64,000 bases of DNA from Clostridia bacterium. Its GTDB lineage: Bacteria > Bacillota > Clostridia > Oscillospirales > CAG-272. The stretch is from the NCBI GenBank assembly GCA_017463125.1, contig JAFTPV010000005.1:7519-71518 (forward strand), read 5' to 3'. Every line of letters starts with the position of its first letter. The stretch's first letter is position 1. This document shows positions 12,262 to 64,000 of this stretch, in pieces. Both the position numbers and the translations under genes were made by a program. The notes beneath the pieces are model-generated. The model did no database searches, was not told the origin of the DNA, and saw only the letters and a program-made list of their open reading frames with translations.

Positions 12262-12302
12262 TATTGTTTCCTTTCTGTTTTTTGTTTTTTGTAAGAGAGT
12301 TT

Positions 12303-12446: not shown

Positions 12447-12477
12447 ATTTTTCGCCTCCTTTTTAGATTTTTATGTG

Positions 12478-13757: not shown

Positions 13758-13812
13758 TTTCTTTTTTGTGTTTGTGTCGCGGCTTGCCGATATTTCACGG
13801 CAAGCCTGTTTT

Positions 13813-42117: not shown

Positions 42118-42470
42118 AAAAAAGCACTCCTTTGGAGTGCGGATGCGATACGGGAATCAGCCTCGTCTTGCAAGCTCTCCGAAGGAGAGGACGAGGCAAT
42201 GTTGCGAACCCATGCGGCTTTACCGCTGGGACGATGAGCGGACTAGCCGTCAAAAAGAGATGAGCACTCGCAAGGAGTGCCTATTTTACGGGAATTTCAG
42301 CCGAGCTGAATATTTGCTCGCTTGCCGCTTACGAGCAAGCTCGACGCGCTCTGCGCGGCAAATACTAACCCATGCACCGTCGCGCGTAGCGCTAGGTGCT
42401 GGGGAGATTCCCGTACGCGTCACCACAGAATGAAAAAAGCACTCCTTTTGGAGTGCTCATTCTGTGGTGA
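42118..42470. repeat. tRNA-Glu-derived palindromic repeat cluster, including an inverted copy of the tRNA 3' end
   Basis: GATTCCCGTACGCGTCACCA (42406-42425) equals the last 20 nt of tRNA-Glu; TACGGGAAT...AACCCATG fragments twice; three GCACTC..GAGTGC hairpins. Confidence 0.75.
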
Positions 42471-43934
42471 AGCAAGCGCTTCAATATCCGAACTTTTCTC
42501 GATTGCGTCAAATTCCTCTCTTGTGGGGACTGTTACCGGCTCGTTTTTGAAGTTGAAAGTGATTACAAGCTTGTCGTCATAAAGGAGCACGCATTTGACC
42601 AAACTGTCTATCAAACGCTCTCGATTCCGCTCTAATGTCAAGTCTAGTTTACGAAATTTGTCTAAAACGAATAGAACCTGCTCCTTTGTAAGCTTTGGAG
42701 AGCTTGTCTGCTCTTTCAAAATATTAAGCTGAATTTGTTCTTCCTTGTCTTCAAGCTCTTCTAGCTTTGCTTTAGTTGAACGAGTGATAATTCCTGCCTC
42801 GATAGCCTTCATTACGTTGTCGATGGACTTACGAACTTCCTTTAGCTGAGCCTCAAGAAGCGGTATAACCTTGTTGTCCTCATCAAGCAAAGCGACAATC
42901 TCGTCGGCAATCTTATCAAGTGCTTCGTCATCAAACAGAACCTTGATGACCTTATTCAGCACAAGCCCCTCAATCCATTCCTTACGAACGGCTTTTTTAT
43001 CGCACTCGTGCCTCTTTGCGCTGGCACATTTGTAATAGCGGTAGATATTGCCGTTTTTCTTTTGCGCGGAGTCACCAACCATCATACTGTGGCACTTTCC
43101 GCAGAAAAGCTTGGTTGTCAGCACGTACTTTTCCGGAGCTTTGTTCTTTGCCGATGCGTGCTTGTTCTGTGCCATGCGCCTCTCGACTGCCTTAAAGGTG
43201 TCTTCTGACACAATAGCAGGTACACCGCCCGGAATCTCAATGCCGTTATAGTGATACACTCCCATATATGATTTGTTTGTAAACATTCGGTTGAGCGTGC
43301 CGTTATTAAACTCTGAGCCCTTCTGCGTTTTCAAGCCTCTTGCGTTGAGGCTACGGACTATTTCAACAATAGACTCACCGTGAGCATAACGCTCAAATAT
43401 TTCAGCCACTATGGGAGCTTTTAAGGGGTCAATTTGGAAATGTTTGTCTTCGTCAACGGTATAACCGTAAGGAAGACCGTTTCCACCGTTAAAACGGCAT
43501 TTCAAGGCGTTCTCGGTCATCCCTCTCGTGACCTTCTCGGCAAGGTCGGCTGAATAGTATTCTGCCATACCCTCGAGCACAGACTCGAGAATTATTCCCT
43601 CCGCACCTTCAGAGATTGCCTCGGTTGCAGAAACAACACGAACGTTGTTTTTCTTCAAAGCAGCTTTGTATTTCGCACTGTCGTAGCGGTTACGAGAAAA
43701 GCGGTCAAGCTTCCAAACTATGACTACGTCAAAGGTCTTTTTAGCGCTGTCGCGTATCATTCGCTGAAACTCAGGACGGTTGTCTGTCTTGGCAGAAAAT
43801 GCCCTGTCTATGTAATGCCCAACTATCGTGATACCGTTTTTTTCAGCAAAAGCAGTGTTCTCACGAATCTGCCCCTCAATCGACTCCTCACGCTGATTAT
43901 CCGAGGAATACCGAGCGTAAATTACACCTGTCAT
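42420..43934 (-). CDS. Large serine recombinase (integrase)
   Basis: VIYARYSS catalytic motif, RPEFQRM, KLDRFSRN, PYGY, Zn ribbon LFCGKC...YYKC, coiled coil. Confidence 0.96.
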   Translation of the reverse strand: MTGVIYARYSSDNQREESIEGQIRENTAFAEKNGITIVGHYIDRAFSAKTDNRPEFQRMIRDSAKKTFDVVIVWKLDRFSRNRYDSAKYKAALKKNNVRVVSATEAISEGAEGIILESVLEGMAEYYSADLAEKVTRGMTENALKCRFNGGNGLPYGYTVDEDKHFQIDPLKAPIVAEIFERYAHGESIVEIVRSLNARGLKTQKGSEFNNGTLNRMFTNKSYMGVYHYNGIEIPGGVPAIVSEDTFKAVERRMAQNKHASAKNKAPEKYVLTTKLFCGKCHSMMVGDSAQKKNGNIYRYYKCASAKRHECDKKAVRKEWIEGLVLNKVIKVLFDDEALDKIADEIVALLDEDNKVIPLLEAQLKEVRKSIDNVMKAIEAGIITRSTKAKLEELEDKEEQIQLNILKEQTSSPKLTKEQVLFVLDKFRKLDLTLERNRERLIDSLVKCVLLYDDKLVITFNFKNEPVTVPTREEFDAIEKSSDIEALASPQNEHSKRSAFFILW

Positions 43935-44179: not shown

Positions 44180-46819
44180 TCAAAAGCAAATTTTCACAGG
44201 ACCGAAAAGTCCCGCAGAAAGGTTATCCTCGCAAAACACCATTTGTCTGTCATGATAAGGTGAAAGCTGCCATTTTGCAAACTTCTCAAAGGTTTTTGTG
44301 TACTTATATTCATTTGCGGCACTACCGGTAACACGAATTGCCAAAGTATTATTGGCTTTTAGCATATCGGCAGAAAGTGTGAGCTTATAAGGCGGCATAA
44401 TAAGTACACCTACTGACTCACCGTTAAGAAATACTTCTGCAGAATAGTCCACTCTACCCAGGTCTAGAGTAAATCTGTCAAAGGCTGCATTTGGCTTTTC
44501 AAATTCGGTAAGGTAAGAGCAAGTACCTGAGAATCCGTCTCCAAGTCTTGTTCTCCAATCGCCCAGTTGTATAGGCAAATACGGCTCATCAAACGCTTTT
44601 CGATATATATTCATATCCCCGAGAACGATTTGTGTGTTTTTCTTAAACAGATACTCTTCGCTTAGTGTGACTTCATTTGAATATGTATCTTTTTCGAGCT
44701 CAAAATCTTCATCTGTATAGAGAAGAGCTGCGACCTCTCCCGACTCAAGCGCAAATTCAGCTATACCGTCTTTCACTTCAAGCTTAAGGAGCTTTCCGCG
44801 TGTGATGTCTATAAGCATCGGTGCTTTTCCGTTCACGGTAAGTACAACCCTATCCTTTTCAAATCCCTGGTTAAAGATGATATCCATTTTTCCGTTTTCA
44901 AGCGACTTTGAATAGACACGAAGATTGCCTGAGGAAAAATCTATCGATGTATCAGAAGAACAAATCCCCTTACAGCTTTCAACCGCTTCGGCACCGAAAA
45001 TTTTCGGAGTAAGGTCGTTTTTTACGGTAACAACTCTTCCACCCGAGGCTATAAATTTCTCAAGGCGTTTTATAATGCTATCGGGAATGTATTTAGCGGG
45101 CGGAATTATAATCGTTTTATATTTCGCTTTTCCCATAGCTATCATACCGCAAAGCAGAGCATCCTCGTCACAGCCACAGATAACGTCATCATCAAGAATG
45201 TCAAAGTAAATTCCATCCTCTTCAAGCTCAAATCCTGCCTTCTCGTATCCTTCGCATACCGTTTTAGTATTATTACCCGACCAAATGTCGCACATAGGTA
45301 AATAAAGGGCGGTGTCAACAAGTCTATCGCCAAGAGATGTAATATAAGAAAGTCTTTCGCAATACTCGTTAAAGGCTCTTAGTTCATTGTAGTTTTGCAA
45401 TTCCTCACAAAAGTCGGGGCGTTCTCCGGTCATAAAGAACCCACCTTTGCCATAGTTCTTTATCATCAAATTGAAAACATTAATGCCCCGCACGGCTTGA
45501 AATCCAAAGACGTAACGCATTTCTTGATAAGTGATACTCTGTCCGTAAACGCCAAAGCTCTCTGTAGCAGAAAGGACACTGCCTATCTGAGCCGCTGCAG
45601 ATGATGCATATCTTGGGAAAAATCTGTTTTCTGCCGTCATTGTTATTCCAACAAGCTTTGGTTCGGCGGGGAAAATCTGTCGCCATATAGCATCAACGGC
45701 AGGAATGTTAAAATTACGAAGCGCTCGCATAATATGATAGTTCGCCTGTCTTATGCTTCCCAAAGGATTATCATCACCGTTAAGATGACCGACAAAGGAC
45801 ATATTATGCTCGTTTGCCCACTGCTTTTCACGCAGGAGATAGTTTTTACAAAAAAGCTCGCTGCAAAGGTCATACCATCTTATGATCGCCTTTGCGGATG
45901 CTTCGGGTACCGTAACATCTTCCAAGTCTTCCGAAGACCTTGTTGCAGTCACGGTTACAGTATTTTCCGTTGTGTCAATATCCTCATATTCTTTCCAAAG
46001 TCTTTCATTGTTTTTCCACAATACGTCAAGATGGGGTCTAATAGATTCGCCGTACCTGCGTTCATATTCCTTTTCAATTTCAGGTCTGAACGGCATAGGT
46101 GTCGGTCCGCAAGGCTCGTCTGAGAACACCGCACTTATTTTATTACCAAAATGCTCTGATAGAGTACGAGCGTAACCAGGGAAGGTTTCATCAATGAAGG
46201 CATCGGTGGCCTCCGCAAGCATGAGGTCGGGGAAATCGGGAGAACCAGGTGAGCCAAAATAGAAGCGTCGGGAAAAGTACTCACTCACCTCGATATCCTC
46301 GGTAGCTACGTAGTTTTCTTCTATCATTTTACCGTCAGGTAAAAATGCCGCTGCGGTACACTCGCCCGGAACATACTTATCTCCGCCTTTAAGCTTAATC
46401 TTTCTTTGTCCAAGACCGCGTCTTGCAAGCTCGGGGTGTTTCAAAAGAACTCTTCCGCACGCGCCTCCCGAGGGCCAACCGCCCTCATCATATATCCAAG
46501 CAATCATACCTCGTGAAAATGCAGATTTCAAGGCATAAGCATACGCCTCGTAATAAGGCTCGGTAAGATAGTCAGGCTCAAGCATAGTGGGCATGCAGTC
46601 GGGTCTGAATGTTTTTGGCTCGGGAATTATATAAAACGCCTTTATTCCAAGTCTTTCAAATTCATCTAGCTGGCGATCGGTTTCCTCGTTTGTAACAGGG
46701 GCATTCCAAACCCAACTGTATATAGGCGAGCAGCTCGTTTCAGGAGCTAAAAACTCGCTTTTTGTGAACTTAGATTTGCATTTCCTGTAATTATCGTTAA
46801 AATTCATAATTGTTTCCAT
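44180..46819 (-). CDS. GH106-like glycoside hydrolase (alpha-L-rhamnosidase-related)
   Basis: P.YSWVWN, WIYDEGGWPSG, FSDEP, TESFG, C-terminal LDLGRV..SAEVFLNG...GLFGPV; start may be ATG 46807. Confidence 0.75.
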   Translation of the reverse strand: METIMNFNDNYRKCKSKFTKSEFLAPETSCSPIYSWVWNAPVTNEETDRQLDEFERLGIKAFYIIPEPKTFRPDCMPTMLEPDYLTEPYYEAYAYALKSAFSRGMIAWIYDEGGWPSGGACGRVLLKHPELARRGLGQRKIKLKGGDKYVPGECTAAAFLPDGKMIEENYVATEDIEVSEYFSRRFYFGSPGSPDFPDLMLAEATDAFIDETFPGYARTLSEHFGNKISAVFSDEPCGPTPMPFRPEIEKEYERRYGESIRPHLDVLWKNNERLWKEYEDIDTTENTVTVTATRSSEDLEDVTVPEASAKAIIRWYDLCSELFCKNYLLREKQWANEHNMSFVGHLNGDDNPLGSIRQANYHIMRALRNFNIPAVDAIWRQIFPAEPKLVGITMTAENRFFPRYASSAAAQIGSVLSATESFGVYGQSITYQEMRYVFGFQAVRGINVFNLMIKNYGKGGFFMTGERPDFCEELQNYNELRAFNEYCERLSYITSLGDRLVDTALYLPMCDIWSGNNTKTVCEGYEKAGFELEEDGIYFDILDDDVICGCDEDALLCGMIAMGKAKYKTIIIPPAKYIPDSIIKRLEKFIASGGRVVTVKNDLTPKIFGAEAVESCKGICSSDTSIDFSSGNLRVYSKSLENGKMDIIFNQGFEKDRVVLTVNGKAPMLIDITRGKLLKLEVKDGIAEFALESGEVAALLYTDEDFELEKDTYSNEVTLSEEYLFKKNTQIVLGDMNIYRKAFDEPYLPIQLGDWRTRLGDGFSGTCSYLTEFEKPNAAFDRFTLDLGRVDYSAEVFLNGESVGVLIMPPYKLTLSADMLKANNTLAIRVTGSAANEYKYTKTFEKFAKWQLSPYHDRQMVFCEDNLSAGLFGPVKICF

Positions 46820-46894: not shown

Positions 46895-48529
46895 TTATTT
46901 TGCGGTTCTGTTGAGGTTGGGAAGTGTGGTTTCAACAGACTGAACAAATTGAATGTTATCCATATAAACTATACCCTCGTATCCCTCGAAGTTGTTCTCA
47001 AGAGTTGCAAATCTTGCAGGAACAGAAGGCCAATTTACATAGAATCCAAGCGAGCCCTCGTTAACGACGTAAGCACCGTCTGTGTTAAGATATGCCTTTT
47101 CGGTAGCACCCGAGGAGGTATGTCTGTCAGCGGTATCCATAATAAATACCTGCTTGCCGTTTACAGATATAACAAGTATGTAATCGTTTACGCCGTCCTG
47201 AACGTTATGTGTCCAATACTCAAACTGGAGATTGAAGGTCTCACAAAGGTCTCTGGGTGTTTCTGCATCATTGATCTGCATTGTGTAGAATGTGAACTCT
47301 GTTGCACCGCTATCGCCGGGTAAAACTCTGAATTCGATAGCACCTGTAGCTGTGCGGTAGTAAGCTCTTACTCTGTAACCGAGATTATCTCCGGAGAACG
47401 CAAAGTTAATATGAGGAGTTTCACCAGTGCCTGTGTAGTTCAAGGTGTAATCTGCGGAATATACGAAGTGATTGAAGCTTTCAACAGCCTTGGTGGGAAC
47501 AACTGCCAGTGTGTTATTTTTAGTTGTTGTGAGCTTGAGGCTATTGCCATCCGCATCCTCGCTCATCTTTTCTACCGAGAGAGCTATGTGAGTGTTTGTA
47601 GAACTTCTGGTACGCAGCGCCTTAAGAACATTCTGATACTTTGCTGTTGCGAAAGGAACTGTGGGACAGGAGCCGGTGAGAAGCCAACCGCCGCTTATTG
47701 TAGTTTCAGTAATTGCAATGTTGCCGAGGTCGCCCTCTTCCATATCGTCAAAGGTAAGGAGCGATGCGGTGTCGAGGTAATTTTCGACAAGGATCATATC
47801 ACCGTTTACGGTAATTTCCTCGCCAACGTTGTAGGTCTGTCCGCTGATAGAATCCTTGTATCCGGCAAAGGAAAGACCATCTTTCGTAGCTTCACCGGTG
47901 TGGGTGAGGGTTATTTTGTCGCCCGCGAGAACGATACCTCTCGAAAGAGTGCCGAACGTTCCGTTTTCAACGGTAACGTATTTATAATCGGTTGCGAGCT
48001 TATCAGTGTTGTGACCGAGTATTCTCTGAACGCTTGCACCGTATTCAATGATGGCATTGAAATCTGCATCATTTTCATCCATTGTTCCCTCAGTGAATAC
48101 CATTTCCTTGCAGTACTCAACAACGCTGTACTGCTCAACTTCGCTGTAAACATAAGCGCCGTCAATAAGCGCTCTCGCCTGAAGATATACCTGGTCGGCA
48201 AGGTTCTTTGCATTAACACCGGGAGTTGCGAAGAGCTGGCAATTTGCACCCCAAACATCGCCGCTGCCATAAGGCGCAACAACAACCGGAGTTGATGATT
48301 CTGTGGGATACTCGTTGTAAACAAGAAGCTCTACATCGCTATCGCCTACGTTCTCTGCCTTTACGGCAACGCTGAGAACTACATTACTCTTAAATGAAAC
48401 GTTCTTTGACCAGATGTCAAGTGTCGGGGTAGCATCTGCTTCCTCCGCTGTAGTCATAATAGCAAGAGAGGAGCATATAAGAAGCGCGAGAGAAATTACT
48501 AAAACCAAAAGTTTTGTCTGTTTTTTCAT
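46895..48529 (-). CDS. Secreted/surface protein, cassette 2 gene D
   Basis: Signal peptide MKKQTKLLVL..; I.SKNV...AV, GVNAKNLADQVY, YSVVEY, YGASVQ N-domain shared with the other D genes. Confidence 0.85.
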   Translation of the reverse strand: MKKQTKLLVLVISLALLICSSLAIMTTAEEADATPTLDIWSKNVSFKSNVVLSVAVKAENVGDSDVELLVYNEYPTESSTPVVVAPYGSGDVWGANCQLFATPGVNAKNLADQVYLQARALIDGAYVYSEVEQYSVVEYCKEMVFTEGTMDENDADFNAIIEYGASVQRILGHNTDKLATDYKYVTVENGTFGTLSRGIVLAGDKITLTHTGEATKDGLSFAGYKDSISGQTYNVGEEITVNGDMILVENYLDTASLLTFDDMEEGDLGNIAITETTISGGWLLTGSCPTVPFATAKYQNVLKALRTRSSTNTHIALSVEKMSEDADGNSLKLTTTKNNTLAVVPTKAVESFNHFVYSADYTLNYTGTGETPHINFAFSGDNLGYRVRAYYRTATGAIEFRVLPGDSGATEFTFYTMQINDAETPRDLCETFNLQFEYWTHNVQDGVNDYILVISVNGKQVFIMDTADRHTSSGATEKAYLNTDGAYVVNEGSLGFYVNWPSVPARFATLENNFEGYEGIVYMDNIQFVQSVETTLPNLNRTAK

Positions 48530-48565: not shown

Positions 48566-48709
48566 TTAATTAGGTTTTGTCCAAGAGTCCGGGTTGGGGT
48601 CGTCGTCGCCGAAGATGTCGCCGCTTGTGGAAATTACGTCATTTTGCTGAAAATCAATTATTTCCAAAAAAGGCTTATCGTAAATCGATTTTCTTTTCTT
48701 TCTTTCCAT
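48566..48709 (-). CDS. 47-aa peptide, cassette 2 gene C: MERKKRKSIYDKPFLEIIDFQQNDVISTSGDIFGDDDPNPDSWTKPN
   Basis: Translated by hand; GAAAGG RBS, ATG start, TAA stop; homologous to the peptides at 12303 and 61515. Confidence 0.85.
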   Translation of the reverse strand: MERKKRKSIYDKPFLEIIDFQQNDVISTSGDIFGDDDPNPDSWTKPN

Positions 48710-48743
48710 ATAACCTTTCCTTTCTTGTTTATTTAATGTTTAA

Positions 48744-50003
48744 TTAATACTTTAAGTTGTAGAAGAATGCCTGATAACTATCCTTTGAGTAAAGGGGAAT
48801 AATCTTGTTTCCTCCGAAGCCTAAGCACTCAAATATTTTTACATTGGTTGACGTAGAACCGAGTACGGTGGCATTTATATCACCCTCGTTTGGCGCCTCT
48901 CCGTTAGGAAGACGTCTTGCAACAGGCGCGCCCTGCGAAAGTGCTGCTGTGCGATGAGGACACATTGAAATCGACCCATCCTTTTTCATAAAAGTTGCAA
49001 GCTTTTTGCTGGTTGCTCTTATAGCTTCGGGAGCGCGGAGAAGACATTCTTTATTTACCTTTTCAATAAAATCTGCGCCTCCCCCGCAGGCATTCTTTGC
49101 GTTAAAGAGCAGGTTTGATATAGTGTACCAGGTGTTATAGATGTAGCAAACAGTTACCGTAGGCTCGTCGAAGCTTGTGATACAGTCCATAGCCGTCATA
49201 ACGACCTTGTCGGCATAGTTAAAGGGGCGGTTTGCCTCTTGGTAAAGAAAGCTTATCTTGAAGGCACCGTTTACTGCGTCGTATCCCGGCTTTTCTGCCC
49301 AAAGGCCGTTTTCTTTATTTCTCACATCCTCAAGGAAATCTATCGCGGTATCGAGAAGTCCTGCTGCGGAAAGCTGTCTTACCTGAGCCGCAAGATTATT
49401 TCCCGAATAATAAGAGTTCGTTTTCCAGTCGAATTTTTCAAGATACTCGATAAATGCCTTTTTGTTTTTCAGATATTCAGGTAGCGCTATAACAGAGCTT
49501 TGGTCGTTTTCATCAAGATTCTGCTTAAGGCGCTCGATAGCTGTGGAGTATGGGAGCTTGAACTTAAGCCTATGCGAAAGATCTACCGCCCATTGCAGGT
49601 CTCTTCCGCGCCTTGAATCCGTTATATCCTTTCCCCACTGGGGATGATAGATATATCCGTCGTCAATATCAAGCAGTGAGCAAACGAACATAGCTATCTT
49701 TCTTCTCATTGCCTTCGGAAGCTCGTCATCTGAATCTATAATTCCCGAGTAGTGTATAAGGTTAAGCGCCTGGAGCGTGCTTTCAACATCGGGAAGAAAT
49801 CCGGAATTATCTCTTGCGGAGTTGGAGTAATAAAATCCGCCAACTCCCTTACTGTAAAGTTTGGCAAGCCATTCAAGGAGACTGTCGCTGTACATCTCGT
49901 GATGCTCTCTTAACGCCTCTATTACCGCATCTGCGTTGCCGCCCTTGTTGCTTATCTCTTCTTTAAGATCCTTCCATTTGTCGTTATAAAGTTCGCTGTT
50001 CAT
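48744..50003 (-). CDS. Stand-alone cytoplasmic domain X protein, cassette 2 gene B
   Basis: 419 aa; GGFYYSNSARDN.GFLPDVEST, GYIYHPQW, SRRGRDL, YNTWY, KKDGS, EGDINAT. Confidence 0.8.
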   Translation of the reverse strand: MNSELYNDKWKDLKEEISNKGGNADAVIEALREHHEMYSDSLLEWLAKLYSKGVGGFYYSNSARDNSGFLPDVESTLQALNLIHYSGIIDSDDELPKAMRRKIAMFVCSLLDIDDGYIYHPQWGKDITDSRRGRDLQWAVDLSHRLKFKLPYSTAIERLKQNLDENDQSSVIALPEYLKNKKAFIEYLEKFDWKTNSYYSGNNLAAQVRQLSAAGLLDTAIDFLEDVRNKENGLWAEKPGYDAVNGAFKISFLYQEANRPFNYADKVVMTAMDCITSFDEPTVTVCYIYNTWYTISNLLFNAKNACGGGADFIEKVNKECLLRAPEAIRATSKKLATFMKKDGSISMCPHRTAALSQGAPVARRLPNGEAPNEGDINATVLGSTSTNVKIFECLGFGGNKIIPLYSKDSYQAFFYNLKY

Positions 50004-50027
50004 TGGTATTGCCTTTCTGGTTTTGCG

Positions 50028-53000
50028 TTAGTATTTTGTCCAAGCGTCATCGGTAGAGTCATTTCCGCCGAAAAGCTCGTCGTCGGTTTCGGGAACGGGT
50101 GGTGTGTTGCTTTCTCCACCCTCGGTGTCGGGGTTGTTGTTATCATTGTCCGAGCCGCTTTCGTTACCCGTGCCACCCGGATTTTCCGTTCCGCCTTGCT
50201 CTCCGGAGCCACCTTGGTTGCCGGAACCGCCTTGGTTGTCTGAGCCGCCTTGATTGTCCGATTCTTCATTATCGGGGGCTTCTGTAAGATTATCGGTAGC
50301 AAACGAAACATTATCAAGCAGCATCCTTGCATCAACATCACCGTATGTGTAAAGCCTTACGTTGTCAAGGTTTTCAGGTAAAATGGGATTGGTGCCCGAA
50401 AGGGCATCTCCCACATAGCTGTTGTTTGCGAATATTCTGACCGCTGAGATACCTGTATCGGCAATGTAGTATTCAAGTCTGAGATTTACCCATTCACCTG
50501 TGCTTGCGACAGTGATATGCTGTTTCGACTGTCCCTTCGGAGTCACGTTCAGAACCTCAACCGCACCTCCATCGGTATATCTGATTTCAAGGCAGAATGC
50601 CGAATCCTTGGCAGGGGTATCACCCTTACGGAAGTAAAGCTGATAAACGCTTCTGCCGCCCAATACGTTGGAGTCAATTTTAAGGTCAAGGGTGAATACC
50701 GCAACACTCTTATTGTCTGTGTTTATCTTCTTGAACACCAAGGCATCATTATTACCCTTTGTGCTGTTAAAGGCGAGAACCTTTGATGCAACCAGGTTTC
50801 TCACCGCCTCTTCAACGGTTACTCTGCCGCCAAGAGATTTAAGAGTGGGAGTTATACCGCTTGGGATATTTCCCGTAAAGCTGCTTTCGAATGTCAGAAG
50901 CTTATTTCCGTTTTCGGAGTTTTCTGCCTCTGATTTGCTTTCCTTATACACCTTGGTATAGCTTTCGGCTATCATGCCGTTGAAGTAGAGCGAGGAATCG
51001 GTAAGCAACTCAAGCTTAATCGAAGTAAGATCGCTTTGAGCAAACTCTTCCTCGTATATGAGGCTTGAATTCGCTACAAACACATCATTAATAAACAGTT
51101 TTGTGATGTTTTGCGTGGTGTAATACTCGAATGAGAAGAGTGCCTTGTCTGTAATTTCAAAGCTAAAGAGCATAGATGCGTATCTTCCCTTGGCTTTTGT
51201 AACCTCGTACACCATGACTTTTGTTTCTGTTGTTACAATATCGTATGCCAAAGCGATATCACCGTTTGCCTTGATAAGACTTATACGGTATGCTCCGCTT
51301 TGAGATTTATTTTTGTATAGCTCGGTAGAGAATATTACGGTTTTACAGCCGTTATCTCGTCTGTTTAGAGGAATAATAATATTCGACCCTGTACCTGTAA
51401 GGTTAAGAAGCCTATCTGCACCAACGGACACTATCTCACCGCCATTTACGGTTACACCCTCGGGAAGCTGATTATCAAAATCAACCTCTTCGGAGTCTCC
51501 CTCCGGTTCGATTGCCTCGTCAAGACTCTTTTTTATTCTCTCGGAGTAAAGGTCATCGATCATAAGACCGTTTACGCCCGAGCTTCCGACGATTTCAAGC
51601 TTTGCCGCCTTGTAAAGCGCAGCATTCGAGCAAACACTCTGGCTTATGGCAGCTATCTCACCGTCTATATAAAACACAGTTGCTTTGCCGCTTTCAAAAT
51701 ATTCCGCCTTGAGAACAAAGCTTTCTCCAATAGGCATTTTGTAGCAGTCTGTATACGAGCCGAGGGTGCCGTTAGGATATTCTCTTATGCTAAGAGTCCT
51801 CGTCTCACCGGAAGCCTCAATTTCAATAATAAATCTTGCAACAGGCTTGCCTCTCGAATTAGACTCGCTCATATTAAGCTCAAGAGTAGCCTTTCCCGAA
51901 AGAGACGTGAGAATAAAACGCATCTCGTTTGACATGCACACAGCTCCCGCAGCTCCGGTCACAGAATAAACCGATAGAGAGGATGCATCAGCCGATGCAA
52001 ATTTCAGAGCCTTTGTCGCATCTCCGTCTGCGATAGTATCGGATAACTCAAATGCTCCGTCAATTGCAAGTCCATCCTTAAGCTTATCAAGGCTGTCTAT
52101 CGTCTCAAAATCGTGAGTTACTCTGTCTTTGCCTTTGGCATCAACGTTTATTGGCAGATCGGCACTGGGCACTGCCTTATAGAGGTCGTTGGTTCTGTAA
52201 AGGCAAACATTATCCATAAGGAATGACGCTGCCTCTGTGGAAAGAACTGCAATTCTCGTGTTGTTAAACACATTTGTAGGTACAGATTCGCCTTCTGTTA
52301 TCTTGATGCTGTTAGCGTCATAATAGTTATCGCTTACCGCCGCCAGCTTTCCGTTATAATATACCTTGATACGAACACTATTATGGTCTCCGTTGTAGTA
52401 TTCAACCTTGAGATTAAACCACTCGCCGATTTTCGGAGTTATTCCAAGCTCGTTTTCGATATACAGTGAGTGATTTCCGGTGGAGCTGTCCCAAACGTTG
52501 ACGGTATCTCCCGTGACCTTAAAGCAAAGCATATATGCCGTGCCCATAATAAGCTGTACTGTGTAGCTTTCATCTGAGGATGTGATGCACATATCCCCCT
52601 CAAATACCTGGCAGGATTCGCTTGAAGCTATACTATTTTGAATATTGAAGAGAACTCTGTCATATCCGTCATCTGTAGATCTAACCTCAAGAACGTTTCC
52701 TTCGCCGCGTTCGTCATTAACAACTCCGATAAATCCGCCCGAAGAAGCAAGAGACGAAATCTCAACGCCTTGCGGAAGCTCCAATCCGTCATCGAATGTT
52801 ATAGGTTCTCTTGGATCGCCTACTTCATCCTTTATAACAGGGTCAAGCTCTTCCATAATAGAAAGGAAAATCGCAGATTCAGCTTTTCCGTACTGCTTTG
52901 GAGCATAACTCGCAAGTCCAAGTGCCGCAAGGCAACGCTCAATAGTACCATTTGCGCATAAAGAGGTTGCGTTTACGTCGCCCTCGTTGGTGTTTGCAAG

Positions 53001-54818
53001 AGTAACCTTAAGTCCTTGGCTGTATTCTGCGGCCTTGTCAGGCTCGAAGGAGAAGGAGCCGTCCTTCTTTTTGAAGGTGAGCTGCTTTTGTGCCGAAATT
53101 CTGATAGCCTCCGGCGCCATTTCCAGAAGACGCGCGCGAGTTTTTTCGGCAAGAAGGCGGTCCTCGTCGGTTTTTGCATGAGTCGTTATGTTCGCTTGCA
53201 GCTCCGCAAGAGCGTACCAGACGTTGTAAACGTAGCACACCGTCTTTACCTCATCTTTTGAGGTAAGCATGGTGATACAGGATTCAACGGCAAGGTCTGC
53301 ATTCGGGAATACCTTACCGAATGTATTATAGGTTGGAATTATTTTGAGTAGCGCGTTTGTCGCGTCATAGTTTACGCCGTTATCCCAGAGTCCCGTTGAC
53401 TTGTTCTGGTGGTCGTTAAACCAGCTTATAAGAATGTCACAGAGGGAATAGTCGGCAGAAAGCTCTTTATCACGGTTTTGAATTTCCTTTGCCTGAGAGC
53501 CTATCTCGTTTCCTATTTCATAGAAGGATTTTTTGCCTTCCTTATTGAGCTTGCTCAATTCATCAAGATAACCCATAAAGCTAACCTTGTCAACAAGGTG
53601 CTCTGTAGTCGTCTGCGCTACCGGTACGACCGACGAAACGGCCGCTACACGCGAGGTCGACAGCCGCATAGTAAGCGCGGAGGCCTGTTCGGGATACGAT
53701 AAAGAAGAGCCGTCAGGCAAAATTCCGTCTCCCTTATCGCCAAGCGGAGTGTCATAGGTTGGCTTGTAACCGAAAAGTGCGAGAGTGGATACCGATTTTG
53801 TCAGGTCTCTCGCCCTGCGTGACAGGTGCTTGTCGACATCCGATTTTTGCCATTGCGGATGGTAGAAATAACCGCTCTTTGGGTCTTGCAGACTTTTTGT
53901 GAAATGTACGATCTGTCTCTGTATTGTCTCGGGGAGCTTATCTCGCATATCGGTAGCGTCGTCAAAGAGCCCTGTGGCAATAGCGAAGGTGAGAGCCTGG
54001 TTCGTTGATTCAGCATCCGGTAGATAACCTACAGTGTTACGCGCGGTATTAGAGTAATAGAAGCCTCCGCCACCGCAGTATATAGTGCTTTGACATTCGC
54101 CCTCACAAACGCAGATAACAGGCTCATAAAGGTTTGCAAGCCAGGAAACAATATCATTTGTTGTAAGTGCATCGTAATAGAATTTTACGGCTTCGGCAAT
54201 AGCCGCACCGTCGCCGCCTGCCTTGTCAGCCTCTTCTATAAAGTTTTCCCAAGCCACAGCGTCGTTTGCATCATCTATTGCCTGTTGGTATTCAATAGGG
54301 TCAACAAAGGCATAGCTTACTATTCCTGAGCCTAGGCTCAAGGTACGCTTGTCGCCCACAATATCGGAAATTAAGTATTTGCATGCTGTGGTTTCGGCTG
54401 CGCCTATTCCGTATTTATCGTTTTGATAGGCTATCGCAAGAGAAAGGCCATCGGAATAAATGAGATAACCGCTCTCATCCTCCGAATCACCTTCTGTTCT
54501 TTCAAGAAGACTGTATGCTCTCTCTGAAATATCCGTTTCAACATCACCAATATGTATTTCGTGCTTTCCGGTGGATCTGTCCGGGGTTTTCATCCTTGGA
54601 CTGTATCCCAAAAGTGAGGTCAACTCTTCTCTTATAAGGTCTACTCCGGGAGAAAGCTCATTTATTATCAGAGTAACACTCTCTTCAGGCGAAAATATCA
54701 CGCTGTCCGATGAAGAACCGGAGCCTGCGCCAGCCTCGTTTCCTGCGGTACAGGAAATAAGAGTCAGCATCAAAAGCATTAAACAAAGGGCAAGCGTGGT
54801 TGCTTTTCTTATAGTCAT
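50028..54818 (-). CDS. Giant lipoprotein, cassette 2 gene A (domain X, beta-sandwich modules, Gly-rich linker, peptide-like tail)
   Basis: Start reassigned to MTIRK (AGGAGG RBS), 1596 aa; lipobox LISC; collinear with the N-terminal two-thirds of 13813..20637; NQGGS repeats; ends LFGGNDSTDDAWTKY. Confidence 0.85.
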   Translation of the reverse strand: MTIRKATTLALCLMLLMLTLISCTAGNEAGAGSGSSSDSVIFSPEESVTLIINELSPGVDLIREELTSLLGYSPRMKTPDRSTGKHEIHIGDVETDISERAYSLLERTEGDSEDESGYLIYSDGLSLAIAYQNDKYGIGAAETTACKYLISDIVGDKRTLSLGSGIVSYAFVDPIEYQQAIDDANDAVAWENFIEEADKAGGDGAAIAEAVKFYYDALTTNDIVSWLANLYEPVICVCEGECQSTIYCGGGGFYYSNTARNTVGYLPDAESTNQALTFAIATGLFDDATDMRDKLPETIQRQIVHFTKSLQDPKSGYFYHPQWQKSDVDKHLSRRARDLTKSVSTLALFGYKPTYDTPLGDKGDGILPDGSSLSYPEQASALTMRLSTSRVAAVSSVVPVAQTTTEHLVDKVSFMGYLDELSKLNKEGKKSFYEIGNEIGSQAKEIQNRDKELSADYSLCDILISWFNDHQNKSTGLWDNGVNYDATNALLKIIPTYNTFGKVFPNADLAVESCITMLTSKDEVKTVCYVYNVWYALAELQANITTHAKTDEDRLLAEKTRARLLEMAPEAIRISAQKQLTFKKKDGSFSFEPDKAAEYSQGLKVTLANTNEGDVNATSLCANGTIERCLAALGLASYAPKQYGKAESAIFLSIMEELDPVIKDEVGDPREPITFDDGLELPQGVEISSLASSGGFIGVVNDERGEGNVLEVRSTDDGYDRVLFNIQNSIASSESCQVFEGDMCITSSDESYTVQLIMGTAYMLCFKVTGDTVNVWDSSTGNHSLYIENELGITPKIGEWFNLKVEYYNGDHNSVRIKVYYNGKLAAVSDNYYDANSIKITEGESVPTNVFNNTRIAVLSTEAASFLMDNVCLYRTNDLYKAVPSADLPINVDAKGKDRVTHDFETIDSLDKLKDGLAIDGAFELSDTIADGDATKALKFASADASSLSVYSVTGAAGAVCMSNEMRFILTSLSGKATLELNMSESNSRGKPVARFIIEIEASGETRTLSIREYPNGTLGSYTDCYKMPIGESFVLKAEYFESGKATVFYIDGEIAAISQSVCSNAALYKAAKLEIVGSSGVNGLMIDDLYSERIKKSLDEAIEPEGDSEEVDFDNQLPEGVTVNGGEIVSVGADRLLNLTGTGSNIIIPLNRRDNGCKTVIFSTELYKNKSQSGAYRISLIKANGDIALAYDIVTTETKVMVYEVTKAKGRYASMLFSFEITDKALFSFEYYTTQNITKLFINDVFVANSSLIYEEEFAQSDLTSIKLELLTDSSLYFNGMIAESYTKVYKESKSEAENSENGNKLLTFESSFTGNIPSGITPTLKSLGGRVTVEEAVRNLVASKVLAFNSTKGNNDALVFKKINTDNKSVAVFTLDLKIDSNVLGGRSVYQLYFRKGDTPAKDSAFCLEIRYTDGGAVEVLNVTPKGQSKQHITVASTGEWVNLRLEYYIADTGISAVRIFANNSYVGDALSGTNPILPENLDNVRLYTYGDVDARMLLDNVSFATDNLTEAPDNEESDNQGGSDNQGGSGNQGGSGEQGGTENPGGTGNESGSDNDNNNPDTEGGESNTPPVPETDDELFGGNDSTDDAWTKY

Positions 54819-54992
54819 AATTGACCTCCTTGAAATCTGTTTTTTGTTTTCTGATTTAATTTTAGCACCTACAAAAGCGTTTTTACATATCTTAATGTGT
54901 CTAAACAATTTCATTTTGTTGTTTCGCCTTGATTTTGATATTTTATTATGTTAACCTAAAAATAACATCAATAAACAACTGTGAGGTTATAT

Positions 54993-56415: not shown

Positions 56416-57609
56416 ATGGCAAAAAAAGGATTTGAACTTAAAACTATCACAAGGTTGATTTCATCAGACTCAGACAAGCCTAACTGGTCTTTATGCGTTG
56501 GAGCAGGCATTTCGATACCTATATTTCCATCATGGTACGCATTGGCAAAAAACTTAGCCAATACGCTAATACCTGGATCGGATTTGGATGAAGAAATGTT
56601 AACCGATCTCGCATTTTCTGCAGATGCCTTGATTCAAATGGTTAAAAACAAAACCAAAATTTCAGATAAAGACTTTGCCATCAAGATGAGTGAAATTCTA
56701 TATTCTGATTTTAAAGAAAAAATAGAACCTAACGACTGGCCTGCGATTGTCAAAATTTTAGAAGCAAATCATTTGTCAAAAATAACTGCAAAAGAGTGGG
56801 ATGTATTTAACAAATATAGGGATACCGTTTTAAAAAACACAACATCTAGCGTAATCGCTAAATCTGTTTTCAAAGCAATTGAAGCCGGAATATCTCCAAA
56901 ATCAATATTGTCTTTTAATGCCGAACCACTTCTTTTGGTTATGCTAAACTCTTTATTAATGCAAAGTAAAACCGACGAAGATCATCCTATACCCAAGCAA
57001 TTGTTTAACAAGGTTACCGGTAGCCTTTCAAACCAAAACGACAAACGAATACAATATGTTTTTTGTCATGGTTTGCTTCCGTTGTCAAACAAGAGTGATA
57101 AATTTACATATTCGACCGAAAAACTAGTTTTTTCAGAAGAAGAATATCTTCAGATAGCAAACAACTCGTTTTCGTGGCAGGCAACAACTTTTATAAACAC
57201 ATGTACAACACAACATATAATTTTCATAGGAACATCTTTAACAGATCCAAACATGAGAAGGTGGCTTAGTTGGACTCATTCAAACCGTTTGAATGAGATG
57301 AAAGAATACAACTTGAATGTAGAAGATAGCACACAACATTATTGGATAAAAGAAAAACCTAAAAATAGAGATTTGATGCCTTGGATAGAATCTGCAGTTT
57401 CACATTTAGGAGTAAGATTGATATGGTTGGATAGTTGGTCACAAGCTGGTGAAGCACTAGAGTTGGCTTTAGGTTTAAGAAAAAGAGAAGCAGCACCTAA
57501 AATAAATAAAACCTACAAAAAGAAAAATAATAATCAACAACGAAGAAAGACACACTCTAAAAAAGACAATGTAAAACATCGAAACAACAAAAAGAACGAG
57601 GCAAGATAG
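56416..57609 (+). CDS. SIR2-like (SIR2_2) domain protein, possible anti-phage defence
   Basis: LCVGAGIS...PSW, SFNAE, HG, SEEEY, FIGTSLTDPNMRR motifs; visibly AT-rich. Confidence 0.8.
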   Translation: MAKKGFELKTITRLISSDSDKPNWSLCVGAGISIPIFPSWYALAKNLANTLIPGSDLDEEMLTDLAFSADALIQMVKNKTKISDKDFAIKMSEILYSDFKEKIEPNDWPAIVKILEANHLSKITAKEWDVFNKYRDTVLKNTTSSVIAKSVFKAIEAGISPKSILSFNAEPLLLVMLNSLLMQSKTDEDHPIPKQLFNKVTGSLSNQNDKRIQYVFCHGLLPLSNKSDKFTYSTEKLVFSEEEYLQIANNSFSWQATTFINTCTTQHIIFIGTSLTDPNMRRWLSWTHSNRLNEMKEYNLNVEDSTQHYWIKEKPKNRDLMPWIESAVSHLGVRLIWLDSWSQAGEALELALGLRKREAAPKINKTYKKKNNNQQRRKTHSKKDNVKHRNNKKNEAR

Positions 57610-60051: not shown

Positions 60052-61467
60052 TTATTTAGCTTCGTACGCGTTATCTGACAATCCGATTATAAAGTTATCT
60101 ACACATACCGTAGAATTTATAGGCATTGCATTGTCAAGATAGAAGTAAATTCTATTGTTATATGTATTCGCGGTATCGGTAAGAGTCATAGTATATCCAT
60201 ATGTATCGTCTACATATATCTGCACATACTTTACTCCACCAACATTATAGAATTCGAGGCGGATGTTGCACCATTTACCGGGCGTTATAACGGCAGTGTC
60301 TTTTGCTCCAAGAGAAAGTGTCGTTCCATCTGAATTTCGGTAAGCCTTAATGTAATCGCCACCGTCAAGGCGGAACAACGGACGACCGTCGCTGGTTCCC
60401 GTGAACATATCGCTCATTTTATAATCAAACTCATATATCTTACAGCTAACCTTTGTAAGATCGGTATTCTCGTCGGAAAGCGAAGAATCAGAAATTCCGG
60501 AATAATAGAAATATGCCTGGGTCCACTGTTCAACCGTTTTTGTCATGGTCGCTGCACTGTCTACAACACTTCCTGTTGAAACACTTGCACTACTAAATCC
60601 GTTGAGACTAGCACCATCTGTTCCAAAATCGCGGGCTACCGGCTTTCCGAGAAGGGCGGTTCTGTCATTCCAATACTTACCCTCTCCGCGCTCGTAAGCC
60701 TTAACCTCGATAACAGCGTTCCCGCTTACGGTGAACGTTCCGTCGGTAATAACCTCGGAGGAGGTTACGTTGCCGTTTGCATCAAGGAGAGATACCTGAT
60801 ACTTCTTTGTAGCGTCTGCGGGAGTAAAGGTAATAGAATCGGTTTCGAGATACACGCCTGCGGAGTATGCACCGTCGATAGTGCCGAGGTCGGTGTAAAC
60901 GTAGTAGTAATCGGTTACAAGGTGGTCTACGTTATTGTTTGGGTTGGTATCAATATTAAGGACTTTACCCATATTAGCCGCAAACTCAAGAGTAGAGAGG
61001 TAGAACTCTTTACGAATTTCGTCCTTGCCGGGAGTTGCGTAACCGTTCTTATAGAGCTGCTCACCGAGATACTCTGCGATGCTGTATCTTTTAGCCTCGC
61101 TTGTAGCGTCACCCGAGGTTGCGGTAACGGTGTACTGCGTTGCAAAGTCCTGAGGACCTACGCCCTCGGTTATAAATACGTATGCCGCCTTGTTCTTTAT
61201 AGTCTGCTGATTTTCTGCGGTTGCGGCAATGGTCTGTGACCACTCGGTGTCACCGCCTGTTACGGTGAGTGTAACTGTGTCCCCCGTTACGGTAGACGCA
61301 TCAACTGCATACATAAGTGAGAATTTGTCGCTGTAATAAACGTTCTGGCTGAATATTTCGGGCTTTGTGGCTTCAGTGTCTTGCGCTGATACTGCGAATG
61401 CCGTTGCGGTGAGCGCAGTCATAGCTGCCATTATGGCAATAACTTTTACTATCGTTTTGTTTTTCAT
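60052..61467 (-). CDS. Secreted/surface protein, cassette 3 gene D
   Basis: Start reassigned to MKNKTIV (AAGGA RBS); signal peptide; EIFSQNVYY..MYAV, YSIAEY N-domain; C-domain highly similar to the end of 63004..64000. Confidence 0.85.
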   Translation of the reverse strand: MKNKTIVKVIAIMAAMTALTATAFAVSAQDTEATKPEIFSQNVYYSDKFSLMYAVDASTVTGDTVTLTVTGGDTEWSQTIAATAENQQTIKNKAAYVFITEGVGPQDFATQYTVTATSGDATSEAKRYSIAEYLGEQLYKNGYATPGKDEIRKEFYLSTLEFAANMGKVLNIDTNPNNNVDHLVTDYYYVYTDLGTIDGAYSAGVYLETDSITFTPADATKKYQVSLLDANGNVTSSEVITDGTFTVSGNAVIEVKAYERGEGKYWNDRTALLGKPVARDFGTDGASLNGFSSASVSTGSVVDSAATMTKTVEQWTQAYFYYSGISDSSLSDENTDLTKVSCKIYEFDYKMSDMFTGTSDGRPLFRLDGGDYIKAYRNSDGTTLSLGAKDTAVITPGKWCNIRLEFYNVGGVKYVQIYVDDTYGYTMTLTDTANTYNNRIYFYLDNAMPINSTVCVDNFIIGLSDNAYEAK

Positions 61468-61514
61468 TCTTTCTTTCCTTTCGTTATTGTGTTTTTCTGT
61501 GAATTTTGCGCGCG

Positions 61515-61646
61515 TCATGTCCATCCTCCGTCGTCCCACGAGCCTTGAGTTAATTTTCCTGACGTGGATATTACGTCGGCAGAGTCAAATTTAACGATGT
61601 CAAGCTCGGGCGTTTGGTATGGACTTTTCAAGTCTTTTTTCCTCAC
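61515..61646 (-). CDS. 43-aa peptide, cassette 3 gene C: MRKKDLKSPYQTPELDIVKFDSADVISTSGKLTQGSWDDGGWT
   Basis: Translated by hand; AAGGAG RBS, GTG start, TGA stop; homologous to the other two peptides. Confidence 0.85.
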   Translation of the reverse strand: MRKKDLKSPYQTPELDIVKFDSADVISTSGKLTQGSWDDGGWT

Positions 61647-61677
61647 GTTAACACTCCTTTCTCTTGTTTTTTGTGGA

Positions 61678-61704
61678 TATTTGCTAATAATAATTTACAT
61701 TTTA
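61678..61704 (-). promoter_or_regulatory. 27-bp motif identical to 12478..12504
   Basis: Exact match; lies 31 nt upstream of the peptide start codon in both cassettes. Confidence 0.5.
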
Positions 61705-61705
61705 A

Positions 61706-62953: not shown

Positions 62954-63003
62954 AATTATGTACCTTTTGGGTCTCGCCGAGCGCAGCCGCGCTCGGCATT
63001 TGT

Positions 63004-64000
63004 TTATTTCTCTTCATAGGACTTGCTTGTGCAGTCTATTATGAGGTTATCTACATATACCGAAGTATTCGCCGCCATAGCGTTGTCGATAAAGAAGCGT
63101 ATCTCGTAAGCGAAAGCACTGTCCGTGCTTATAGTTTGAGTATAGGAGTAGGTGTCATTTACGTATATCTGCACGTAGCGCGTGCCGTCAACGTTATATA
63201 CCTCAAATCTTATATTGCACCACTGACCCGGGGTGATAACCGCCGTGTCCTTCGAGCCAAGCGAGAGGCTTGTGCCATCCGAGTTTCTGTACGCTCTGAC
63301 GTAATTACGGTCTACCGTATCGTCAGTATTATAATCAAGCGCAAACAGAGCGCGTTCGTCGTTTGAGTCCGAGAACATATCGCTTATCTTATAATCAAAC
63401 TCAAATATCTTACAGCTTGACGTAGCGTAATCAGCAAAGTCGGCGTCGTTATGCTTATAACGGAAATACTCCTGCTTCCACTCACTGCTCGTTTTTGTTA
63501 AGACAGCCGCGCCGTCAGCATTCGCTCCCGTCGCGTAACCGTAATTTGAAAAGCCGTTAAGCGCTGCTCCCGCCGTACTGAAATTCCAGCTCTTATAATT
63601 CGTAAGCGCGCTCTGCGCTTGCCAATAAACACCCTTACCAAGCTCAAACGTAGGCTCTATCGGCTCTGTTTCAGTACCGTCGTCGCCGCTCTGTGCGTCG
63701 CTAATATGTCCATAGAAGAGATTGTCAATCGACATTACTGAGGTGTTTTCATAGCCTGTATAGGCGTTTCGCCATACCTTGATGCTCGTTATCAGAGCGC
63801 TTGTAGTGCCGAGACTCGTGCTTTCTCCGATTTTTACGTTGTTGACATAATAATCGGTTGTCGCGCTTCCGTCTGCAAGATATACTATCTCAAAGCGAAT
63901 GTTATACCAAGTGTCAGATAGGATAGTATTTTCCTCGCTGGCCGGAGTACTCACAGATTGCGAATAAAGGTAAAGAGTATCAGCATCGGAATTTTTACCG
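63004..64000 (-). CDS. 3' part of a large modular protein, probably cassette 3 gene A (continues beyond the window)
   Basis: WYNIRFE...YYVN...IDN modules as in the other gene A proteins; same position upstream of a domain X gene; 5' end not visible. Confidence 0.7.
   Translation of the reverse strand, partial: GKNSDADTLYLYSQSVSTPASEENTILSDTWYNIRFEIVYLADGSATTDYYVNNVKIGESTSLGTTSALITSIKVWRNAYTGYENTSVMSIDNLFYGHISDAQSGDDGTETEPIEPTFELGKGVYWQAQSALTNYKSWNFSTAGAALNGFSNYGYATGANADGAAVLTKTSSEWKQEYFRYKHNDADFADYATSSCKIFEFDYKISDMFSDSNDERALFALDYNTDDTVDRNYVRAYRNSDGTSLSLGSKDTAVITPGQWCNIRFEVYNVDGTRYVQIYVNDTYSYTQTISTDSAFAYEIRFFIDNAMAANTSVYVDNLIIDCTSKSYEEK

Follow-up and report, generated by a model that had tools for sequence, protein, structure and literature searches.

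An apparent leaderless copy of a short peptide's core at the C-terminus of a giant clostridial surface lipoprotein

Introduction

In borosins, the core can form the C-terminus of a large protein or come from a small gene of its own, next to a paralogue of the domain of that protein, and in the fused form the enzyme acts on its own tail within the cell. Cohesins and dockerins provide non-covalent docking at the surface, and ComX-type pheromones are short C-terminal peptides around one Trp. Here we analyse a stretch of 64,000 nucleotides (nt), referred to below as the window, from a Clostridia bacterium of the CAG-272 lineage (assembly GCA_017463125.1, contig JAFTPV010000005.1, positions 7,519 to 71,518 of the forward strand). 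It contains three cassettes that are paralogous to one another and have the gene order A, B, small peptide, D, all genes of interest being on the minus strand. Our subject is the tail of A2, the giant surface lipoprotein of the second cassette, which resembles the end of the peptide encoded two genes downstream (peptide 2).

The free peptides can also be set beside lasso peptides. In the account of pseudomycoidin, the C-terminal Ser of the precursor is phosphorylated by PsmK, a kinase of the HprK family, and addition of hexose to the phosphate requires PsmN, an NTP transferase that is uncharacterised (PMC6993621). Genes for HPr kinase, PqqD and a nucleotidyltransferase are described as common in lasso clusters of rumen Firmicutes, and the lasso leaders printed in the same source (PMC7533575) begin Lys-rich, contain an aromatic-x-x-P stretch and have a Thr close to the junction, in which they resemble the leader of the family treated here.

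Results and Discussion

The C-terminal tail of lipoprotein A2

Gene A2 occupies 50028–54914 (minus strand) and encodes 1628 amino acids (aa) counted from the first ATG. The likely start is M33 (54818), upstream of the lipobox L-I-S-C (…LTLISC), which gives the 1596 aa of the first-pass annotation. The protein consists of an N-domain, a B-like (alpha/alpha)6 toroid (52851–54257, minus strand; B-family profile matches C2:60369-61184 and C2:61263-61775), several ConA-like modules, a linker and a tail. The linker is a low-complexity Gly/Asn/Ser/Asp stretch of 58 aa with SGNQGG repeats (50106–50279, minus strand), and the NQGGS repeat described there at first pass is a real tandem array, with 3.7 copies of an 18-nt unit at 50191–50256. 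The tail comprises the last 25 aa, TPPVPETDDELFGGNDSTDDAWTKY (50031–50105, minus strand), before the stop codon at 50028–50030, and the translation terminates in …DELFGGNDSTDDAWTKY, given also as …NTPPVPETDDELFGGNDSTDDAWTKY* and …PPVPETDDELFGGNDSTDDAWTKY.

The gene for peptide 2 (48566–48709, minus strand) encodes 47 aa, MERKKRKSIYDKPFLEIIDFQQNDVISTSGDIFGDDDPNPDSWTKPN*, with the terminus …GDIFGDDDPNPDSWTKPN (also …SGDIFGDDDPNPDSWTKPN). Both A2 and peptide 2 match [LI]FG-x2-D-x3-D-[AS]-WTK with identical spacing, as had been claimed, and they are the only two matches among 40,496 stop-to-stop frames of at least 25 aa across the 1.9-Mb genome. The shared DNA, TTCGGCG and CTTGGACAAAA, was found as described. 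The interval first assigned to the feature, 48566–50072, needs correction, since its end covers only the last 14 codons of the tail on the minus strand, and the interval also contains all of gene B2. The motif that emerges from the comparisons below is an acidic stretch ending in [G/S/A]-W-[T/...] at or near the C-terminus rather than the proposed D..WT as such.

Two orthologues of A2 in the protein collection, P0134 (72% identity) and P0135 (70% identity) over the last 429 aa, both retain the tail, so that the chance match that the first-pass annotation had allowed for is not borne out. In the three-way alignment, 17 of the 25 tail columns are invariant (…PET[DN][DN]ELF[GD]G[NS]DSTDD[AG]WTK[YN]), compared with 41 of 60 columns in the last folded module and 6 of 58 in the linker, the lengths of which are 58, 54 and 35 aa. 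Because the tail is as conserved as the folded module that precedes it while the adjoining linker diverged, the alignment indicates that the tail is a conserved, selected feature. When the C-terminal 400 aa of A2 were compared with the genomes of 40 relatives, the matches were weak and confined to one genome.

A profile of the peptide family, which is dominated by the leader, matches no A protein at E<=10, and thus the A2 tail corresponds to the core alone. On this evidence it is a leaderless, genetically fused copy of the peptide 2 core. The layout of sorting signals of the LPXTG or PEP-CTERM type (a motif, a hydrophobic helix and a basic end) was not found in the tail, which is acidic and has no hydrophobic stretch; tails stop 1–6 residues past the W. 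Nor did A2 give a dockerin match in Pfam at E<=0.01, the tail measuring ~25 aa against two Ca-binding repeats of ~22 residues.

The other two A proteins of the window, as had been stated, have no tail and terminate in a folded module. In each case this module is similar to the C-terminal part of the D protein from the same cassette (A1/D1, 38% identity over 278 aa; A3/D3, 49% over 248 aa). The A and D proteins of a further pair, at C25:79884-90015, are also similar, with …VDNV[FY][VT]GH…YVAGDPNA in common. The 3' end of A thus mirrors either the jelly-roll module of its own D or its own peptide.

Tails recur and match the peptide of their own cassette

When species-representative genomes were scanned with the B family, 69 loci emerged, which hold 47 peptide genes, 41 of them followed directly by a D-type gene. 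Together with this genome, these loci supply 63 complete A proteins with 62 distinct C-termini. An acidic W tail is present on 21 of the 62, with a peptide gene at most 6 kb away for 20 of the 21. Examples are C27, in which the A tail …GGNMDGSSWDEN accompanies the peptide …GGDMDGTSWDEN, C16 (…FDDGTAWT and …SGSGSWT) and C13 (…DNSSWVPIG and …DENAWV). One further tail is found without a toroid, on an unrelated lipoprotein of ~305 aa (C19:136469-137458, plus strand) that ends in …GGYVDPDGWT (…VEDSGGYVDPDGWT) and is built of Cys/His-rich repeats (H-x-W…C-x-x-C). The earlier proposal that the module can be used either as a free peptide or fused to an exported protein is therefore supported by its recurrence, and by its match with the local peptide. 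CxxC/His modules like those of the C19 lipoprotein precede the tail in the A proteins of C16, C13, L068, L094 and L100.

The match was assessed by scoring the last 18 residues of each tail against 54 distinct peptide cores. For 12 of 20 tails the peptide of the same cassette was among the top 5 of the 54 cores, and for 4 it ranked first; for A2 it ranked first. The observed sum of matches was reached by none of 10,000 shuffled pairings, and with one pair for each of 13 cassette types by none of 20,000, the cassette's own peptide being the best in 5–7 of the 13; many cassettes are related, so that these counts and shuffles overstate independence. Where tail and core have identical residues, the same codon is used in 3/7, 4/7 and 3/8 cases, with C27 as an exception (8/10). 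The differing codons suggest that the likeness is kept at the protein level and does not stem from recent gene conversion. In comparisons that include overlapping loci, tails were present on 19 of 41 A proteins in peptide-bearing genome groups and on 0 of 7 in peptide-less groups. These comparisons indicate that the likeness of the tails is selected, cassette-specific and confined to genomes that also make free peptides.

We consider it very improbable that the tails are a functionless by-product, tolerated after peptide genes and A genes of a fast-duplicating family recombined at their 3' ends. The family is certainly expanded and rearranged, with 16 A-type, 15 free B and 11 D genes that amount to ~116 kb, or 6.1% of the 1.9-Mb genome, and A proteins also copy the C-termini of D proteins. 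The C27 tail and peptide, moreover, are identical at 30 of 36 nt. However, most pairs differ at synonymous sites, the A2 tail is as well conserved as a folded domain beside a diverged linker, and in many lineages, whatever the gene order, the tails follow a linker and form the true C-terminus; this holds also for cassettes in which the peptide gene lies upstream of A (C27, L079, L094 and L100).

The peptide family

Peptide 2 has the two-part conservation of a precursor of peptides that are ribosomally synthesized and then post-translationally modified (RiPPs), namely a conserved leader and a core that is variable save for one invariant W. Its leader, the conserved part of the family, comprises residues 1–30, MERKKRKSIYDKPFLEIIDFQQNDVISTSG (48620–48709, minus strand), and its core residues 31–47, DIFGDDDPNPDSWTKPN (48569–48619, minus strand), before the stop codon at 48566–48568. 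A Shine-Dalgarno-like AGGAAAGG lies upstream of the ATG. The orthologues P0127–P0129 retain the core as GDIFGDD[DN][PH][NS]PDSWTKPN. In an alignment of 16 rows, M1, K7, Y10, D24 and S29 of the leader are invariant and T28 is nearly so, and the consensus reads K..Y..[PA]E[LI]xI[IV]xF…D[VI]IxTSG. The first-pass annotation had overlooked this leader and its tie to a PqqD/NTP_transf_5 operon (see below).

Family peptides are precursor-like, with 40–50 aa divided into a conserved leader and a short variable core. The 54 distinct cores are 12–27 aa long and contain 22% Gly, 14% Asp, 8% Trp and 2% Lys plus Arg, with no Cys. Trp is present in 53 of the 54; exactly one residue follows the last Trp in 37, in 30 the residue before the Trp is Gly, the last W is followed by Thr in 28 of 53, and 23 of 54 cores terminate in WT, so that a typical end is ...D-x-G-W-T. 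A profile built from the three peptides of the window finds 12 dispersed peptide genes in this genome. In an exhaustive profile search, the family reached 5,459 cluster representatives (50% identity) at E<=0.001, nearly all of 36–78 aa; among the best 148 of these, 135 have a W within the last 10 residues and 65 terminate in WT. The corresponding Atlas clusters are labelled only 'hypothetical protein'. A literature search that covered few subscription journals and no supplements gave no description of the peptide family or of such tails.

The family is widespread also where the A, B and D genes are lacking: of 60 further genomes from this taxonomic family, 17 have the peptide, and the B family is found in none. 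In those genomes, peptide genes adjoin diverse genes for secreted proteins (DUF4886, GDPD, BspA-type leucine-rich repeat, acetyl-xylan esterase, Flg_new, cohesin and LamG). The peptide family is thus not specific to the A/B/D cassette. In other genera the cores frequently terminate in F or Y instead of W (10 of 21). Tandem peptide genes with near-identical cores occur at L044 (9718–10177; …VDLFSFGDDY and …VDSFSFGEDY) and L069 (11261–13644; …SSGNDPSAWL twice).

The peptide 2 ORF (open reading frame) is covered by contigs from three metatranscriptome libraries of two studies, and contigs also cover the tail region of A2. One contig covers 48564–48714 and shows 2 differences; a second extends from the beginning of D2 as far as the end of B2. 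Being contigs, with DNA carry-over possible in both regions, they are no proof of transcription and give no transcript ends.

A PqqD/NTP_transf_5 operon and the probable nature of the peptides

The genome encodes a single PqqD (C18:58348-58659; PF05402, 48 bits), the best NCBIfam match of which is the lasso PqqD chaperone, below the cut-off. It lies outside the window in an operon at C18:56694-62467 (locus L063) that encodes a 256-aa HprK-like protein, PqqD, a 154-aa protein with a weak match to signal peptidase I, NTP_transf_5 and a small membrane protein of 199 aa; an ABC-2 transporter pair is located ~0.9 kb upstream. The HprK-related match of the 256-aa protein is very weak (17 bits, cut-off 200). 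A second weak PqqD match, on C25, was rejected as ribosomal protein L7/L12.

No precursor gene adjoins the C18 operon. In two other genera a family peptide gene does head an operon with a PqqD-type peptide-recognition gene and the NTP_transf_5 nucleotidyltransferase gene, with the order peptide, 278 aa, PqqD, 159 aa, NTP_transf_5 and S49 peptidase in one (G064) and peptide, PqqD and NTP_transf_5 in the other (G080). Within the taxonomic family, NTP_transf_5 is present in 16 of 17 peptide-positive and in 19 of 43 peptide-negative genomes (Fisher p = 3.5e-4, related genomes being treated as independent). Among B-family genomes it is present in 3 of 3 with peptides and 0 of 2 without, in the gene order of the C18 operon. 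Our literature search turned up PF14907 only in an unrelated context. The adjacency and co-occurrence of these genes suggest a precursor of the RiPP type.

In this genome, which is 92% complete, the matches to the lasso cyclase family PF00733 were limited to two short ones (39 and 56 of 354 positions, 21–24 bits), both far from the operon, and PF13471 (Transglut_core3), the leader protease termed B2 in lasso systems, gave no match at E<=0.1. SPASM domains and C39 peptidases were not found in the genome, which argues against radical-SAM/SPASM maturation and against double-glycine processing and export. Taken together, the peptides are most likely RiPP-type precursors of a lasso-less, PqqD-dependent pathway. 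The Y-x-x-P stretch of the leader is presumably the PqqD-binding element, and the [A/S/T]-T-S junction, where positions -1 and -3 are occupied by small residues, would be compatible with cleavage of the signal-peptidase kind.

The composition of this operon, which unites PqqD and NTP_transf_5 with a distant HprK-like protein, also raises the alternative that core and tail are kept alike for modifying enzymes and not for a receptor. In that case both would share a C-terminal tailoring, with Thr or Ser phosphorylated by the HprK-like protein and a sugar then added by the NTP_transf_5 enzyme. Pseudomycoidin offers a precedent for such a route, as far as it is set out in PMC6993621 and PMC7533575, and the frequency of Thr after the last W, with WT ends in 23 of 54 cores and 65 of 148 representatives, is consistent with it. 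We nevertheless think it unlikely to be the correct explanation: Ser or Thr is missing after the W in roughly half of the cores and in A tails like ...WDEN, ...WL, ...WV and ...WIKDEE, a single shared enzyme set cannot account for variation between cassettes, PqqD would find no leader on the tail, and the HprK-like match falls far below its cut-off.

The toroid protein B and protein D as candidate partners

The first-pass annotation had proposed a docking or modification tag, possibly recognised by gene D or domain X. Candidate readers of the tail would be protein D and, within A and B, the toroid or the lectin-like modules. In this lineage D is the regular neighbour of the peptide gene, in 41 of 47 cases. 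Gene B2 (48744–50003, minus strand) encodes a free toroid protein of 419 aa without a signal peptide, and gene D2 (46895–48529, minus strand) a secreted protein of 544 aa with a conserved N-domain and a jelly-roll (ConA-like) C-domain. The A, B, peptide and D products match no Pfam or NCBIfam family, with sub-threshold hints of PA14, Laminin_G_3 and 3-keto-disaccharide hydrolase at most, and the 827 homologues of B2 are all 'hypothetical'. The C-domain of D2 is weakly similar to PL7 alginate lyase (E 1.5e-4), and for the N-domain of D the Atlas gives weak leads to Flg_new-type repeats (score 0.86). A homologue of this N-domain was sought at the ends of peptide-adjacent proteins in other genera and rejected (hhalign probability 0.3%).

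The AlphaFold2 model of B2 (predicted local distance difference test score, 95) is an (alpha/alpha)6 toroid. In an exhaustive structural alignment its best neighbours were the beta subunits of farnesyltransferase (2zir_B; Z 17.4, root mean square deviation 3.7, 280 residues) and of geranylgeranyltransferase type I (Z 16.7). The alignments to prenyltransferase beta subunits span 269–280 residues, with Z values ~4 above those of squalene cyclase/terpene cyclases, epimerases, LanC-like domains and glycoside hydrolases; Foldseek returned generic toroids only (TM ~0.4). Free and embedded toroids have a pocket set of Arg, Lys, Asp, Glu, His and Trp in common, whose residues, including R64, R131, R134 and K249, are kept in 15–16 of 16 embedded and 14–15 of 15 free toroids, and A2 keeps the invariant ones. 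Judged from residue conservation, the B family has no invariant Cys and no obvious Zn triad; C286 is present in 11 of 16 embedded and 11 of 15 free toroids.

These structural neighbours suggest a second alternative, in which the toroid, free as B or embedded in A, would be the reader or enzyme of the ...G-W-T end, as prenyltransferase beta subunits are for CaaX. A2 would then hold toroid and substrate tail in one chain, and B2 and the peptide would be the split form, comparable with borosins. Prenyltransferase beta enzymes grip C-terminal peptides, the conserved basic pocket would suit an acidic ligand, most peptide genes of B-family loci lie just downstream of B, and tails are restricted to toroid-bearing proteins with the C19 lipoprotein as the sole exception. 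Even so, this alternative is in our judgement unlikely, attractive as the toroid is as a candidate. The peptide family was found in 17 of 60 genomes and the B family in none of them, and B was rejected as an obligate partner of the peptides on that ground. Besides the lack of an invariant Cys and of an obvious Zn triad in the toroid, the cores themselves have no Cys; prenyl diphosphate is not available outside the cell, where the embedded toroid is located; and ~900 residues separate toroid and tail in A2. Given the neighbouring glycoside hydrolases and a fold common among sugar enzymes, B may instead be a carbohydrate enzyme. A covariation test of B and D columns gave no support either (see below).

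One end-piece in two forms

The reading that we prefer, and to which we give about an even chance, is that the A2 tail is a fused, leaderless copy of the core, that the peptide is a RiPP-type precursor, and that both show one C-terminal epitope to the same partner. The leader ties the free peptides to the single PqqD/NTP_transf_5 operon elsewhere in the genome; it would be bound and then removed during maturation, and the free core would be exported. In the tail this end-piece has no leader and follows a long, flexible linker at the far tip of a surface protein anchored in the membrane. Tail and core are kept alike within each cassette by selection on the protein, and one extracellular partner would co-evolve with them and read the epitope twice, once free and once tethered. 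With the likeness selected, cassette-specific and limited to peptide-making genomes, one partner reading both forms is the simplest reading.

Several observations weigh against this reading. A signal peptide is absent from the free peptide, there is no exporter gene in the cassette, and the ABC-2 transporter genes are only neighbours of the C18 operon. If maturation requires the leader, the tail is beyond its reach, so that the tail and the mature peptide may differ chemically. As to the match itself, 7 of the 20 tails rank their own peptide below tenth (ranks 11 to 54), and the relatedness of the cassettes noted above tells in the same direction. A receptor encoded in the cassette cannot be universal, given the distribution of the B and peptide families over the 60 other genomes, and an iterated profile of the D N-domain matches only 2 of 20 peptide loci of other genera (L046 and L051). 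Finally, across 29 triples the residue after the last W showed no covariation above the null with columns of B or D, the top mutual information being 0.69 against 95% null values of 0.69–0.71.

A bolder version of the shared-partner reading, which we regard as quite unlikely, would make the acidic ...G-W-T end a new kind of portable C-terminal address, read by the toroid or by D and issued by gut Clostridia both as a matured, exported RiPP-like peptide and as a tail of giant surface lipoproteins. Each cassette would have its own 'dialect', and free peptides could assemble, compete with or release tethered complexes. The surface machines with which Gram-positive bacteria degrade glycans would then be docked and regulated through a peptide code.

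Genomic context

Cassette 1 (10666–20637, minus strand) consists of A1 (13813–20637), B1 (12495–13757), a peptide gene (12303–12446, minus strand), the product of which ends in …GEGKTPNWSDDYYDSSWT, and D1 (10666–12312). Cassette 3 (60052–63999, minus strand) comprises the 3' part of A3 (63004–63999), B3 (61706–62953), a peptide gene (61515–61646, minus strand; product ending in …GKLTQGSWDDGGWT) and D3 (60052–61539). The genome assembly has 28 contigs, 1.9 Mb and 92% completeness, and the relatives that bear names are uncultured Clostridia or Eubacteriales of animal guts. Of its 31 genes with a B domain (the 16 A-type and 15 free B genes counted above), 14 A-type genes have a complete 3' end and at least 800 aa. 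The paralogous expansion of A, B and D is unusually large given the small size of the genome.

Around the cassettes lie pyrimidine genes and genes for glycoside hydrolases (GH2, GH20, GH39, GH31 and GH106-like) and for regulators of the AraC and LacI types. Cassette 2 and its GH106-like gene (44180–46819) are followed directly downstream by a gene for a large serine recombinase (Resolvase, Recombinase and Zn_ribbon_recom) at 42420–43934 (minus strand), and the G+C content falls to 0.37–0.41 on both flanks of the cassette (44–46 kb and 54–58 kb). Elsewhere in the window, an 863-aa ORF at 31391–33982 (minus strand) fuses an EF-G/Tet(M)-like GTPase (GTP_EFTU, EFG_III, EFG_IV and EFG_C) to a C-terminal YacP-like NYN nuclease domain. 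A possible defence gene at 56416–57609 (plus strand) encodes a SIR2_2-domain protein of 397 aa; it lies in a stretch of low G+C content (0.37), flanked by genes for an AraC regulator and an amidohydrolase.

Significance and comparison with known systems

The pairing of tail and peptide is real, conserved and recurrent, and the shared end-piece may serve as a docking ligand, a substrate tag or a ligand of the toroid. If our reading is right, the lasting match of the tail with the local peptide implies that the core sequence itself is read by a partner, and offers a handle for finding it. A large peptide family without a Pfam or NCBIfam model and with a stereotyped G-W-T end would then be a candidate new RiPP class of gut Clostridia, with a likely PqqD-dependent maturation route that does without a lasso cyclase. 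A RiPP-type core also carried leaderless on exported lipoproteins would be unusual. Since the cassettes take up ~6% of the genome and stand among glycoside hydrolase genes, the system would probably be central to the surface machinery of these uncultured animal-gut bacteria.

Among described systems, lasso clusters of Firmicutes share the tailoring genes, with PqqD, NTP_transf_5 and an HprK-like protein in one operon as in the paeninodin (pade) and pseudomycoidin (psm) clusters. Their precursors, as printed in PMC7533575, are likewise short, with a Lys-rich start, Y/W-x-x-P and a Thr near the leader-core junction, and the cores shown there are likewise acidic and have an aromatic residue beside the hydroxy residue at the terminus. 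Unlike in lasso clusters, however, neither a lasso cyclase nor the B2 leader protease was found in this genome, and in the leader P and T are ~5 residues further apart. Asp or Glu at core positions 7–9 is inconsistent here: if cleavage took place after T-S, peptides 2 and 3 would fit the lasso core rule (Gly, Ala, Ser or Cys at the start and Asp or Glu at 7–9), while peptide 1, C16, C27 and C20 would not, as judged by eye. Here 12 dispersed precursor genes stand beside surface-protein genes instead of one in a cluster, the cores end in G-W-T and not in H-Y-(D)-S, and leaderless copies are carried on lipoproteins.

Differences from borosins are that the fused form is an exported lipoprotein and that the leader of the free form is of another kind. 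Compared with ComX-type pheromones, there is no ComQ-type gene context. Prenyltransferase beta subunits are the nearest solved folds to B2 and have in common with it a short C-terminal peptide as the putative recognition unit, although B2 shows no detectable sequence similarity to them and no invariant Cys ligand, and the cores contain no Cys. A dockerin is a folded module of ~70 aa with two Ca-binding repeats, unlike a tail of 15–25 aa; in common with docking modules of the cohesin–dockerin type, the tail is a short C-terminal module on a flexible linker, and it varies from paralogue to paralogue.

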